A DNA stretch of 64,000 nucleotides. It comes from Solirubrobacterales bacterium. Its GTDB lineage: Bacteria; Actinomycetota; Thermoleophilia; Solirubrobacterales; 70-9. The number at the start of each line of letters is the position of its first letter. The stretch's first letter is position 1. The stretch covers positions 467-64,466 of the forward strand of contig JAJTCK010000002.1 of NCBI GenBank assembly GCA_021323175.1. Reading direction: 5' to 3'. Below are positions 32,332 to 38,224 of this stretch, in pieces. The translations under genes were made by a program, and so were the position numbers. Below the pieces are notes generated by a model. It was given only the letters and a program-made list of their open reading frames with translations, was not told where the DNA came from and did no database searches.

Positions 32332-33221
32332 CAGTGCCCGCCGCCCGGTACCAGCGCGGTGGCGAGGTCCGCTCCCCTCACCACCGGCCCGTCCACGCAG
32401 AGCCGCATGTAGCCCCCCTCCGCCAGCGGGACCGCGCAGCCGAAGCACGCCCCGAACCCACAGGCCATCGGCGCCTCCATCGCGAGCTCGCACGCGACCC
32501 CGCGCTCAGCGCACAGCAGGCGCACCGCCTCCAGCATCGCCGGCGGCCCGCACGCGTAAACGACGGCCCCGTCGGCGTCGTCGCCTCGCAGCATCACTTC
32601 GAGCAACTCCGTCACGTAGCCGCGGTGGCCCTGGTGACCGTCCTCGCTTGCGACCTTCAACTCGCTGCACCTGAACAGATCCAGGCCGCCGGAGCGCTCG
32701 CGGTCGCGGAAGCCCAGCAACACCCGGGTCGGGACGCCCGCCGCGGCGAGGCGGCGACGCCAGAGGGCGAGCGGGGCGATCCCGATCCCTCCTCCGACGA
32801 GGATCGCGCCGTGCGCCCCGGGGACCGCCTCCCTTGGAACCCCGAACGGGCGCCCCAGGGGGCCATGGACCCATAGCCGCTCCCCCTCCTGCAGGGAGCA
32901 GAGCCGACCGGTCCCAGGCCCGACCCCCTGGACCAGGAAGTCCAACCGGACCCGATCGCCCTCGGGATCGCTGTCGGCGACCGAGAAGGCGCGGGCCAGA
33001 TAGGGCCTGCCGTCCTCGGCGGCCCAGCCCGACTCCGCGGCCAGCATGTAGAACTGGCCCGCGGCGGGATCGGGGCCTTCGGGGTCGACGGCAGAGAAGA
33101 TCCGGTAGCCGCCCGAGGCGATGTTGCGCGTGACCCGGCAAGCCCGACGCCCGAACGGCGCGAGCGGCCGCCCATCGTCCAGGGTGGGCCCCTGCTCGGC
33201 GATTCCGGGCTTCCCGCTCAC
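32331..33221 (-). CDS. pyrK: Dihydroorotate dehydrogenase electron-transfer subunit (FAD/2Fe-2S)
   Basis: ORF 32331..33221. C-terminal [19 protein letters not shown] cluster motif. Start overlaps the carB stop by 4 nt. Confidence 0.9.
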
Positions 33222-36200
33222 GCCCCCGAGGCTCCGGAGGCCCGGGAGGACTCCGGCACGCGGGCGGCCGGCGGCGTCCCGTCGCCCGCGTGCAGCTCCT
33301 GGAGGGAGACCACCTCGGCCTCCCCGCTTCCCTGGGCGAAGATCGCCCGGGCGGCCGCCGAGGCTCCCGTCATCGTCGTGACGCAGGGGATCCCGTGCCG
33401 CACCGCCTCGGAGCGGATCTCGTATCCGTCACTGCGCGCGCCCGATCCGGTCGGCGTGTTGATCACCAGGTCCACCTGACCGGAGCGGATGCAGTCCACG
33501 ACGTTGGGCGAGCCCTCTCCGATCTTCTTGATCATCCGCACCGGCACCCCCATCCGCGAAATCGCCTGGGAGGTCCCCGAGGTCGCGATCACTTCGAACC
33601 CGAGGTCGTGGAACCTGGTCGCGAGCTGGGTGGCGGCCGGCTTGTCCGAGTCCGTGACGCTGATGAAGATGGTCCCCTCGCCCGGGAGCGATACGCCCGC
33701 CGCGGCCTGCGCCTTGCCGAATGCCGTCGGGAAGTCGGCGGCGATCCCCATGACCTCGCCGGTGCTGCGCATCTCCGGTCCCAGGACGGCGTCCGCGCCC
33801 GCGAATCGCGCGAACGGCAGGACCGCCTCCTTGACGCTGACGTGGTCCGGCGACTCGGTCGGCAGCTCCTGTTCGGACAGCCCCTCCCCCAGCATCAGGC
33901 GGCAGGCGATCTTCGCGAGGGGCGTCCCGATCGCCTTGCTGACGAACGGCACGGTCCGCGAGGCGCGCGGGTTCGCCTCGATCACGAAGAGGCGGCCGTC
34001 CGAGACGGCGTACTGAACGTTGATCAGTCCGATCACCCCGAGCTCGAGCGCGATCCGCCTGGTCGTCTCGCGGATTTCGTCCAGCATCTCCTCGCCCAGG
34101 CTCATCGGCGGGATCACGCAGGCGGAGTCGCCCGAGTGGACGCCGGCCTCCTCGACGTGCTGCATCACCGCCGCGACGTAGCAGTCCTCGCCATCGGCGA
34201 GCGCGTCCACGTCCACCTCGATTGCGTTCTCCAGAAACCTGTCGAGCAGCAGCGGGTGCTCCTGATCCGCCTTCACGTTGGCCTCGAGGTACGAAGACAG
34301 CCCCTCGCCCGAGTAGCAGATCTCCATCGCGCGGCCCCCGAGCACGTAGGAGGGGCGGACAAGGAGGGGGAAGCCGACGTCGCCGGCGATCGAGACCGCC
34401 TCGTCCGCCGAGAGCGCCGTGCCGTAGGGCGGATGCTCGATCTCGAGGCGCCTCAGCAGGGCGCCGAAGCGGCCGCGGTCCTCGGCCAGGTCGATCGCGT
34501 CGACCGGCGTGCCGAGCAGGCGCACGCCCGCCTCCTCCAGGGACCGCGCCAGCCGCAGGGGCGTCTGGCCGCCGAACTGCACGATCAGACCCTCGGGACT
34601 CTCCTGCGCGGCGACGGCGAGCACGTCCTCCGCGGTCAGCGGCTCGAAGTACAGACGGTCCGAAGTGTCGTAGTCGGTGGAGACGGTCTCCGGGTTGCAG
34701 TTCACCATCACCGCGTCGCGGCCGGACTCGCGGACGGTCATGGCGGCGTGGACGCAGCAGTAGTCGAACTCGATCCCCTGGCCGATCCGGTTCGGACCGG
34801 AGCCGAGGATCATCACCGACGCCCTGTCCCCCCTGTCAACTTCGCTGAAGGTTGCCGAGTCAGCCGCGCCTTCGCCCGACAGCCCCGGAGGCCAAGCGGA
34901 GGAGGTGTCGGCTGTTGGAGGCCGCTCATGGGCGGAGTAGAAGTAGGGCGTCCGGGCCTCGAACTCAGCCGCGCAGGTGTCCACGGCGCGGAAGCCTCGC
35001 TCCAGGCCGTCGGTCCCATCGCCCTCGGTGGCTAGCAGCCGCAGCTCGCGCAGGAACCAGGGATCGATGTTCGTCGCCGCCCTGACCTCCTCGAGCTCGA
35101 CTCCCCGCTCGAAGGCGGCCCCGATCAGGTCGAATCGGTCATCGGACGGGACCGCGAGCCGCTCCAGCAGCTCGCCCGTCGAGGCCGGGATCTCTGCGGC
35201 CTCATCGAGCTCCCGCGAGCGCATCGCCTTCGCGAACGACTCCCTGAAGGTCCGGCCGATGGACATCGCCTCGCCCACCGACTTCATGTGCGTGGTGAGC
35301 TGGCCTTCGGCCCCCGGGAACTTCTCGAAGGCGAAGCGCGGGACCTTGGTCACGACGTAGTCGATGGTCGGCTCGAACGAGGCCGGCGTCGCCTTGGTGA
35401 TGTCGTTGGGGATCTCCTCGAGGGCATAGCCGACCGCGAGCTTCGCGGCGATCTTCGCGATCGGGAATCCGGTTGCCTTCGAGGCGAGCGCCGAGGATCT
35501 GGACACACGCGGGTTCATCTCGATCACGACGATCTCGCCGCTTTCCGGGTTGACGGCGAACTGGACGTTCGAGCCACCCGTTTCGACGCCGACCGCCCGG
35601 ATCACACGGATCGCCTGGTCGCGCAGCTCCTGGTAGAGGGGGTCGGACAGCGTCTGCACCGGGGCGACGGTGACGGAATCGCCGGTGTGCACCCCCATCG
35701 GGTCCACGTTCTCGATCGAGCAGACGATCACCACGTTGTCATTGCGGTCCCGCATCACCTCCAGCTCGAACTCGCCCCAGCCGAGCACCGACTCCTCGAC
35801 GAGCACCTGGTTGATCGGACTCGCCGCGAGCCCCTCGCTGACCACCTGGCGCAGCTCAGTCTCGGTGTTGCCGACTCCTCCCCCCTGGCCGCCCAGGGTG
35901 AACGCCGGCCGCACGATCGCCGGCAGCGCGATCTCACCCGCCCCGATCGCCCGCTCGAGCTCCTCGATCGAACCGATGATCATCGACCACGGCACCCGCA
36001 GACCGGCCCCTTCCATCGTCCGGCGAAACGCCTCGCGGTCCTCGGCGCGATGGATCGCGTCGTAGTCGGCCCCGATCAGCTCGACCCCGAAGCGCTTGAG
36101 GGTGCCGTCGTCGTGCAGCGCCTTCGCAAGGTTCAGCGCGGTCTGCCCCCCGAGGGTCGGGAGCAGCGCGTCGGGGCGCTCCTTCTCGATCACCTGGGCG

Positions 36201-36421
36201 ACGGGGCCGGGCAGCAGGGGCTCGACGTAGGTCCGGTCGGCGAACTCGGGGTCGGTCATGATCGTCGCCGGGTTCGAGTTGACCAGGACCACCTCGTAGG
36301 CGTCGGCCAGCAGCACCTTGCAGGCCTGGACGCCCGAGTAGTCGAACTCCGCGGCCTGGCCGATCACGATCGGGCCGGATCCGAGCAGCAGGATCTTCCG
36401 GATGTCGTCGCGACGCGGCAT
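33218..36421 (-). CDS. carB: Carbamoyl-phosphate synthase large subunit
   Basis: ORF 33218..36676 trimmed to ATG 36421 ([30 protein letters not shown]). Two ATP-grasp halves and an MGS-like C-terminus. Confidence 0.97.
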
Positions 36422-36549
36422 CAGCCCGTCTGCTCCGCCTGGAAGAACTCCGCGATCGCCTCCATGCCCTCCTGCGCATCCAGGCGGTTGACGACCTCGA
36501 GGTTCCGCGACCGCATGGACCCGCCGGCTCCGGTGGCCGCCGCCGTCAC
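36421..36549 (-). CDS. Candidate 42-codon micro-ORF between carA and carB
   Basis: Own translation: (V/M)[41 protein letters not shown]. The GTG overlaps the carA stop (GTGA) and its TGA overlaps the carB ATG (TGATG). 40 of 42 third positions are G/C, against 22 of 42 in the carB-frame extension. Too short for the ORF track. Confidence 0.55.
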
Positions 36550-37658
36550 TTGGCCAGCTCCAGGAAGCGGTCGAACAGGTAGCGGGCGTCGTGCGGTCCC
36601 GGCCCGGCCTCCGGGTGGTACTGGACGGTGCAGCCCGGCACGTCCTTGAGGACCAGCCCCTCGACAGTGCGGTCATACAGGTTCAGGTGGGACAGCTCGG
36701 CATCGCCGAAGTCGGTGCTCCAGCGCACCGGCTCGTCGCCTTCGATCGTGCCCTCCCCCCCGGGCCCGCTGACGGCGAACCCGTGGTTCTGCGAGGTGAT
36801 GTCGATCCGGCCGGTGTCCAGGTCCTTGACCGGATGGTTGGCGCCCCTGTGGCCGAACGGCAGCTTGAACGTCTCCAGCCCGACCGCCCGGCAGAGGAGT
36901 TGGTGGCCCAGGCAGATGCCGATGACTGGCTTCTTGCCGACAACGTCTCGGACGGTGTCAACGACGTAGTCCAGTGCTCCGGGGTCCCCGGGGCCGTTGG
37001 CGAGGAAGACCAGGTCGGGGTCGCGCGCCATCACGTCCTCGGCGGACGCTTCGCAGGGCAGCAGGGTCAGGTGGCAGCCGCGCTCGCGCAGCTGGCGGAC
37101 GATGCTGAGCTTGATCCCGGTGTCGATGGCCACGATGTGCGGGCCGTCCCCATCGAACTCGATCGGCTCCGCCGGCGTGACGCTGCGGGCAAAATCGGCT
37201 CCCTCCATCGGCGGCTCGACGGCGATCGCATCGCTCGCCTCTTCGGGGCTGACCTCGGTGGAGAAGACACCGCCGCGCATCGCGCCGCGGTCTCGGATGT
37301 GGCGGACGAGGCGGCGCGTATCGATTCCGGTGATCGCCGGTACGCCGCAGTCCACGAGGCAGTCGAGCCAGCCACCCTCCGAGCTGGCGGCGTCGTCGTC
37401 GTTCTTGGCCTCGCGCATGATCACGCCACGGGCGTGGACGCGGTCCGACTCCATCGCCTGCTCCGAGACGCCGTAGTTGCCGATCATCGGGTAGGTGAAG
37501 GTGATGATCTGTCCGGCGTAGGAGGGATCGGTGACCGCCTCCTGGTATCCGGTCATCGAGGTGTTGAAGACGACCTCGCCGGTGGCCGAGCCGGGACCGC
37601 CGCAGAGCTCGCCGTCGAAGCGGGCCCCATCCTCGAGCAGGACGAAACCGGCGGCCAT
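36546..37658 (-). CDS. carA: Carbamoyl-phosphate synthase small (glutaminase) subunit
   Basis: ORF 36546..37928 trimmed to ATG 37658 ([33 protein letters not shown]). Start shares a base with the upstream stop. Confidence 0.95.
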
Positions 37659-38224
37659 CACGCGACCCCCTCGGGCGTCGGGGCGTATTCCAGGATCAGC
37701 TTCTGGACCGTCTTGAACTCGTCGGTGCCCGCCCGGCCGAGCAGTTCGAACAGCGCGGTCTCGACGCTGCTGACCACGGCTCCCGCCGCCTCCATCTTGT
37801 GGAGCCCGATCCGCTTCGAGTCGGGAAAGCGCGACGCGACGGCGTCCTCGACCACATGGACCTCGGTGCCGCCCGCGAGCAGGTCGAGGACGGTCTGATT
37901 GACGCAGACATGGGTCTCGATTCCGCACACGACCGCCTGATCGCGGCCGGCGAGGTCGAAGCCCTCGGCCTCGGCTGCCGAGAACACATTCTTCTCCAAG
38001 GGCTCGACGCCCTCGGGCAGGGTCTCAACCACCTCGGGGGCGGTCGTCCCCAGGCCCTTCGGGTACTGCTCTGTGATGAACACCGGCACCCCCATCGCCT
38101 CGGCACCTCGGACCAAGGTGGCGGTCGCCTTCGCCACTCGCTCGAAATCCGGCACCGCCTTGCGAAAGCCCTCCTGGACGTCGACGACGACGAGCGCGGA
38201 CCGCTCCCGGTCCAGCCGGGTCAC
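37658..38224 (-). CDS. Isochorismatase-family hydrolase embedded in the pyr operon
   Basis: ORF 37658..38368 trimmed to GTG 38224, which overlaps the pyrC stop (GTGA). ALVVVDVQEGF (Asp) and VCGIETHVCV (Cys) are consistent with the Asp-Lys-Cys triad. Confidence 0.8.
   Translation of the reverse strand: MTRLDRERSALVVVDVQEGFRKAVPDFERVAKATATLVRGAEAMGVPVFITEQYPKGLGTTAPEVVETLPEGVEPLEKNVFSAAEAEGFDLAGRDQAVVCGIETHVCVNQTVLDLLAGGTEVHVVEDAVASRFPDSKRIGLHKMEAAGAVVSSVETALFELLGRAGTDEFKTVQKLILEYAPTPEGVA

Follow-up and report, generated by a model that had tools for sequence, protein, structure and literature searches.

The carA-carB junction in the pyr operon of the window, the 64,000-nucleotide stretch of Solirubrobacterales DNA that was analyzed, is filled by a 42-codon micro-ORF that, judged by sequence comparison, is probably best classed as a gene relic and a putative translational relay. 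Our preferred reading, in which we place somewhat better than even confidence, is that this ORF is what is left of an accessory SnoaL-like gene whose translation was probably kept because it couples carB to carA. A SnoaL_2/NTF2-like gene would once have been wedged between carA and carB, overlapping both (NTGA at the carA stop; TGATG or ATGCCTAG at the carB start). In the lineage of the window, large deletions of ~46 and ~67 to 69 codons together with small indels, all multiples of three, would then have left the leader and first helix (codons 1 to 23), a mid-gene piece (codons 25 to 42), and the original stop/start overlap. Such a peptide would be unable to fold as a SnoaL domain, and the act of translation is the part that was probably retained.

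The features of the operon and of the junction, in the order in which they are transcribed, are as follows.

41161-40547, minus strand: pyrR, first gene listed of the pyr operon
40550-39585, minus strand: pyrB, after pyrR
39588-38221, minus strand: pyrC, after pyrB
38224-37658, minus strand: isochorismatase-family gene, between pyrC and carA
36546..37658, minus strand: carA, CPSase small subunit, 370 aa (Pfam CPSase_sm_chain and GATase)
36558..36561, minus strand: GGAG within carA codons (L-E-L-A), 8 nt before the GTG, seen in the sequence
36548-36546, minus strand: carA stop, TGA
36421..36549, minus strand: bridging ORF, 42 codons, GTG to TGA, from the sequence and from gene callers
36549-36547, minus strand: start of the ORF, GTG, within AAGTGA, a 4-nt overlap with the carA stop
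36514..36516, minus strand: internal ATG, codon 12, matching in position the internal Met of intact relatives
36423-36421, minus strand: stop of the ORF, TGA, within TGATG, a 1-nt overlap with the carB ATG
36421-36419, minus strand: carB ATG, sharing the A of the ORF's TGA
33218..36421, minus strand: carB, CPSase large subunit, 1067 aa (Pfam; conserved MPRRDDI start in all relatives)
minus strand, 3' of carB in the pyr operon: pyrK-like gene, then pyrD

The earlier note had described an ORF that occupies the whole carA-carB gap and overlaps the carA stop (AAGTGA) and the carB start (TGATG), and the coordinates bear this out: the gap measures 124 nt and the ORF comprises 42 sense codons. The overlaps at its two ends (GTGA, 36549-36546; TGATG, 36423-36419) are identical in five conspecific sequences, and a carA of 370 aa is also called in the conspecific contigs. 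The same note held that every other pyr junction is an overlap of 1 to 4 nt. This is true of the four upstream junctions (pyrR/pyrB, pyrB/pyrC, and pyrC/isochorismatase, 4 nt each; isochorismatase/carA, 1 nt) but depends on the choice of start at carB/pyrK, where the overlap is 4 nt only with GTG at 33221 and one gene caller starts the pyrK-like gene 42 nt downstream. The isochorismatase-family gene (37658-38224) is a further accessory gene set within the coupled operon, with overlaps of 4 nt and 1 nt, and is also found in the conspecific contigs. The carB product is short at 1067 aa, with the Pfam oligomerization domain CPSase_L_D3 matched only over profile positions 1 to 44 of 80; this domain may be truncated in the lineage of the window.

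In composition the micro-ORF looks like a gene. G/C occurs at 30, 21, and 40 of its 42 first, second, and third codon positions (0.71/0.50/0.95), a profile indistinguishable from those of carA (0.70/0.46/0.91) and carB (0.69/0.48/0.93), and this spread among positions (chi-square P = 2e-5) was matched by 0 of 20,000 nucleotide permutations. The 40 of 42 G/C third positions reported at first sight from the letters are therefore confirmed as typical of the genes around them, while the count of 22 of 42 given for the carB frame becomes 21 of 42 on recounting. An internal ATG at codon 12 (36516-36514), preceded by a GGAG that ends 11 nt upstream and giving a 31-aa product, is present as described. 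The Met it encodes stands in the context GGSM in the window and GGPM in L077, a relative with an intact SnoaL gene, and it may be the true start of the intact SnoaL relatives. Gene callers report the ORF as an unnamed protein in the ENA, NCBI, and JGI assemblies, and the JGI call (P0006, 31 aa) begins at the internal ATG. For the start at the carA stop, the GGAG at 36558..36561 is the likely Shine-Dalgarno (SD) sequence, and the CTGGAGCTGGC context of this region is conserved among relatives. That a frame of this length is open is in itself unremarkable here, because 46 to 49% of shuffled gaps remain open over the length of the ORF in this 73% GC DNA; the nonrandom parts are the codon periodicity and the double overlap.

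Coding-type GC periodicity, a double overlap, prediction by gene callers, and five conspecific sequences without stops or indels (at a shallow time depth) are all what one would expect of a functional micro-protein of 42 or 31 aa acting with carbamoyl-phosphate synthetase. We nevertheless regard such a protein as very improbable, first on account of its range. Among 5.8 billion proteins, the peptide matched its own 90% cluster, which has four variants, and a single further protein at 88% identity, making two 90% clusters that all belong to one Solirubrobacterales species with five near-identical assemblies. The contigs that carry homologues have the same operon and, since their carA and carB are 99.1 to 99.9% identical to those of the window, represent a single species. 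A six-frame tblastn search of 400 genomes of the same family gave chance-level matches only, in unrelated ORFs of ~310 aa (best E, 0.0016 per genome). No family was matched in a search of Pfam and NCBIfam with the peptide, an exact-pattern scan of metagenome contigs for spacer length variants found none, and a protein-guided metagenome scan returned two loci only.

The variation within the species points the same way. Comparing the window with L073 to L076 (five conspecific sequences in all), we found seven variable sites in the ORF (36489, 36479, 36467, 36462, 36446, 36440, and 36439, minus strand), comprising one synonymous and six nonsynonymous changes (N21H, D24V, G28D, E30K, F35S, and Q37P), four of which (F35S, Q37P, G28D, and E30K) are radical. 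The ratio of nonsynonymous to synonymous changes is 6:1 in the ORF versus 10:18 in carA and carB together (Fisher P = 0.03), and variants are ~5 times denser (7 in 126 nt versus 28 in 2,610 nt; P = 8e-4). The residues of the peptide are thus not under amino acid constraint. A conserved small protein would reach beyond one species and show purifying selection on its residues; the micro-ORF does neither, and the undescribed small protein that had been suggested between the CPSase subunits is not supported, given this range, the 6:1 ratio, and descent from SnoaL fragments, to which we return below. All of the variable sites lie in the 3' half of the ORF (36439-36489), and the first 60 nt (36490-36549) are invariant in the five sequences, a clustering with a probability of (66/126)^7, or ~0.01; the invariance of the 5' half may be accidental or may mean that the initiation region is constrained.

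In 113 other genomes from the family and the order we mapped both the end of carA and the start of carB, and we scored a junction as bridged where one ORF, or several in a chain, spans the interval from the carA stop to the carB start. The junctions are distributed by gap length as follows.

Gap of at most 6 nt: 43 junctions, direct overlap or near contact
Gap of 7 to 29 nt: 0 junctions
Gap of 30 to 350 nt: 22 junctions, remnant-sized, 18 bridged
Gap of 351 to 560 nt: 34 junctions, nearly all with a single ORF of ~135 to 165 aa, 31 bridged
Gap of 561 to 700 nt: 9 junctions, with a GNAT acetyltransferase-like ORF of ~203 aa, 8 bridged
Gap of more than 700 nt: 5 junctions, with two successive genes, 5 bridged

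The two genes thus either overlap or touch (≤6 nt) or stand at least 30 nt apart with an insert between them. The shortest class, typically with spacings of -8, -1, or +4, includes all sampled genomes from other families of the order. Three states recur among relatives: the two genes overlap by 1 to 8 nt, they flank an intact SnoaL_2 (PF12680) or GNAT gene that overlaps both of them, or they are separated by a short remnant. The commonest insert is a SnoaL_2/NTF2-like protein of ~140 aa, annotated as "ketosteroid isomerase-like," and inserts nearly always start at NTGA on the carA stop and end at TGATG or with a stop within the first carB codons. Those of 390 to 530 nt (ORFs of ~135 to 165 aa) match SnoaL_2 PF12680 (E, 1e-5 to 7e-10), which was recognized in 31 of 35 subclade junction proteins; five of seven intact junction genes of relatives score at least 27 bits to it. 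Within the genus of the window, five species present five states: no gap (L003), the 42-codon ORF (window), an intact L077-type SnoaL gene (L004), a SnoaL gene of another kind that has an AGGAGG of its own (L002), and a 23-codon stump (L006). Relatives that lack the gap entirely, which had been named in advance as evidence against a small protein, do occur: 43 of 113 junctions have no gap, and others are filled by unrelated content; gapless congeners, a different 23-codon remnant, and intact SnoaL genes are not what a micro-protein would leave in its own genus. Twelve family loci with a BLAST HSP across the gap were considered as conserved spacers and rejected, their gap sequences being unrelated to that of the window.

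In this family the carA-carB junction is a hotspot for insertion and holds SnoaL-like genes, GNAT genes of ~203 aa, GNAT+SnoaL pairs, and tandem SnoaL pairs, nearly all chained via stop/start overlaps. GNAT inserts occur at L087, L104, L130, L136, L138, L141, L145, and L155, and two-gene inserts at L084, L117, L131, L140, and L148. At L161 (G361) a GNAT insert reads on in frame into carB with no intervening stop, either as a GNAT-CarB fusion or through an assembly indel. The 460-nt gap of L083 (G403) holds no recognizable protein-like sequence, yet contains a 154-codon ORF from GTGA at the carA stop to TGATG at the carB start. One genome, G018, has two carA-carB pairs on contigs C8 and C6, one gapless and one with a gap of ~400 nt.

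The closest intact SnoaL gene to the ORF of the window is that of L077, and two blocks of the ORF match it, both in the L077 frame.

36481..36549, minus strand: relic block 1, codons 1 to 23, leader and first helix, corresponding to L077 codons 1 to 33
36424..36477, minus strand: relic block 2, codons 25 to 42, corresponding to L077 codons 80 to 95, with a 2-codon insertion in the window

Block 1 gives in-frame blastn HSPs to L077 at q1-23 and q37-70 (76%; E, 3e-4) and a protein-level match over 11 residues, with RERNLEISRRL in the alignment. The core of block 2 is identical to L077 at 25 of 27 nt, in frame (blastn E, 1.3e-6), and its translation aligns as QEGMEAIAE[FF]QAEQTG in the window with QEDMEAIAD--EAIQSD in L077; block matches were compared for 34 subclade proteins, and some subclade members read EAVQTG at the tail. 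When the ORF was shuffled by codon, the best HSP score against L077 was reached once in 2,000 trials, and the chain of two in-frame HSPs in 0 of 2,000. This in-frame match to two separate pieces of one gene indicates that the ORF is the residue of at least two large in-frame deletions, with small in-frame indels besides. The deletion map is approximate, because the middle block has a weaker alternative placement at codons 40 to 56, where "EFFQAE" resembles the N-terminal FDEFFHPE. At L004, GGCT lies on both edges of deletion 2 (TACGGCTTGGAG ... GCCGGCTGATG), and a microhomology deletion at edges of this type would yield exactly the ...ACGGGCTGATG of the window.

For so short a mosaic the informative homology test is at the DNA level, and protein profiles are weak: the relic scores 3.6 to 6.7 bits against broad and subclade HMMs (shuffle P, 0.002 to 0.01), and the ORF does not reach the gathering score of SnoaL_2 PF12680 (0 Pfam families). 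Descent from this family is read instead from the shared junction, the shared start and stop overlaps, and the DNA HSPs to L077. SnoaL_2/NTF2-like (PF12680) is thus the family of the ancestor of the micro-ORF, with intact copies at the same junction in relatives, but only ~40 of ~150 residues are kept, in two nonadjacent parts; where the complete alpha+beta cone domain has ~100 to 130 residues, 42 remain, the beta-sheet part is deleted, and the fold is impossible. An ORF spliced from nonadjacent SnoaL fragments also argues against a functional micro-protein. Other stumps in the family have comparable origins: that of L006 (23 codons) matches the C terminus of the same SnoaL gene (12.9 bits), that of L010 is an N-terminal half, that of L032 is the C-terminal end of a GNAT insert, and by eye that of L037 looks like a SnoaL C terminus.

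Could the gap instead hold a noncoding element (attenuator, PyrR site, terminator, promoter, or repeat), or could it be an N-terminal extension of carB? Ahead of its start the carB frame stays open over 84 codons, back to 36676, and repeat-like elements do occur at the junction in some relatives (L034 and L147). Against an extension, however, stand the carB-frame third-position count given above and the conserved MPRRDDI at which all relatives start carB. The gap matched no Rfam family at E values up to 1, folds no better than its shuffles (z = +0.89), contains no promoter-like or terminator-like site that we could find, and is single-copy in its genome, all of which makes an element or an extension less probable still than a functional peptide. 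In L034 (G360) the gap holds two tandem copies of a hairpin-rich repeat unit (GGCCGAGACACGCAGTGTCTCGGCAGAGGCAGGTAAGGCGGCG...) and in L147 (G305), from another genus, one related unit; both junctions are unbridged, and the unit looks like a small mobile REP/MIRU-like element.

If the ORF is a relic, its translation could still be without consequence, a remnant of recent deletion that is open, overlapped, and periodic for want of time to decay. In favor of this neutral reading, nearly half of shuffled gaps stay open over such a length, the peptide evolves neutrally, the relic is young because it is confined to one species, and bridging has exceptions. For the window taken by itself, the probability that two to four indels would all be in frame by chance is ~0.01 to 0.1. 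What weighs against it is that the two large deletions and the small indels each keep the ancestral frame, together with the state of the junction across the family. Taking 21 remnant-sized gaps (window included, near-duplicates collapsed) and shuffling each for an expectation, we found that 17 have an ORF that begins at the carA stop and closes at the carB start or slightly within it, compared with 9.9 expected (Poisson-binomial P of about 1.5e-4, a value that, like the other P values here, overstates independence in that the genomes are related). The lengths of all 21 are 0 or 1 mod 3, with none 2 mod 3, and no junction among 113 has a gap of 7 to 29 nt, also unexpected if remnants simply decayed. 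We therefore consider a translated relic without a selected role to be a less likely alternative.

The pattern is not free of exceptions. None of 36 gaps in an earlier sample was 2 mod 3; wider sampling softened this, while it still holds for remnant-sized gaps, the exceptions being an 8-nt start overlap (L139), a broken junction (L144), a fusion to carB (L161), and a two-gene insert (L131). Four remnant gaps are unbridged (L034, L114, L147, and L160), and the SnoaL copies of L115 and L116 are frameshifted to pseudogenes. Frameshifts at some junctions may be MAG indel errors, as L127 is frameshifted within carB itself. The excess of bridged remnants (17 of 21) suggests selection for unbroken translation, that is, for the coupling of carB, rather than for the peptide, and on our preferred reading of a coupling-maintaining relic the frame would have been kept by selection with coupling as the benefit.

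On this reading, ribosomes that end carA would restart at the GTG, or initiation would take place at the internal ATG; either way the 124-nt spacer would be translated as far as the carB ATG, at whose A termination would be followed by reinitiation. Such a relay would maintain the coupling of carB to carA and could, in addition, prevent an untranslated stretch from being exposed to polarity. Starting on the upstream stop and stopping on the downstream start, the micro-ORF has the overlaps of a relay ORF, and the idea that it preserves continuous coupling along the operon gains support from the comparative statistics and from known termination-reinitiation biology (PMC10666635). The carB of the window has a weak and distant SD-like match, its best anti-SD pairing being -5.8 kcal/mol centred 18 nt upstream; where carA overlaps carB directly in the order, the median is -5.6 kcal/mol, with 2% at -8 or stronger. 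Coupling predicts a stronger SD at unbridged junctions, and this was not seen (8 versus 60 junctions; Mann-Whitney P = 0.70, possibly underpowered), an absence of compensation that speaks for the neutral alternative.

Several known systems resemble this arrangement in part. Termination-reinitiation occurs at ATGA and TGATG overlaps (PMC6728339, PMC10666635), coupling breaks down when ~20 nt or more separate the upstream stop from the start that follows it (PMC10666635), and genes for subunits of one heteromeric complex are enriched in short overlaps (PMC10666635). The micro-ORF shares the -4 and -1 overlaps, and the genes that flank it encode two subunits of one heteromeric enzyme; here, though, the relay would run via an intervening ORF that probably has no function of its own. 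Closer in form are the ORFs of MIRUs (mycobacterial interspersed repetitive units), which are coupled at -4, and the short ORFs recognized as solely delivering a ribosome (review PMC12548453, citing Supply et al. 1997 and Shell et al. 2015). Like these "delivery" uORFs, the micro-ORF is a short ORF at an operon junction whose ends overlap the neighboring stop and start and whose proposed role is to hand ribosomes over downstream rather than to make a functional peptide. MIRUs, however, are mobile and repeated and each carries an ORF with it, whereas the micro-ORF is single-copy and would have arisen by in-frame erosion of a resident gene: in a search of G000 for MIRU-like dispersed copies, the junction region and the peptide matched themselves only, the one extra DNA match being the carB internal repeat. 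ORFs between the CPSase genes have been described before: Xanthomonas citri has a 444-bp ORF between carA and carB, overlapping carA by 1 nt, and Pseudomonas aeruginosa has the order carA-orf-carB-greA; both ORFs are cotranscribed with carA and carB, and the paper describes them as unrelated to each other (PMC4619228). These are likened to the ORF of the window by position, as small extra ORFs between carA and carB, but they come from different phyla and are full-length ORFs, not relics.

For annotation, the point is that a micro-ORF overlapped at both ends and perfectly periodic in its codons can be the relic of a gene and not a small protein, and a ribosome-profiling signal on such an ORF would be no proof of peptide function. 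There is no new implication for pyrimidine or arginine metabolism. Intervening ORFs between carA and carB and short ORFs that deliver ribosomes are already known, and the family-wide pattern is the part worth pursuing. It raises a broader idea that we hold tentatively, at a little under an even chance: that the decay of genes inserted into a coupled junction is channelled by translation, such that only frame-keeping or overlap-restoring deletions survive and "coupling relics" accumulate that resemble micro-genes while being selected only for being translated. If channelled decay is general, a share of the doubly overlapped micro-ORFs in GC-rich genomes would be coupling relics. The carA-carB junction of this family forms a natural series that begins with direct overlap, continues with intact inserts of the SnoaL or GNAT kind, and ends with in-frame stumps (14 to 83 codons) and a few frameshifted copies; it could show the limits that coupling sets on gene loss within operons.
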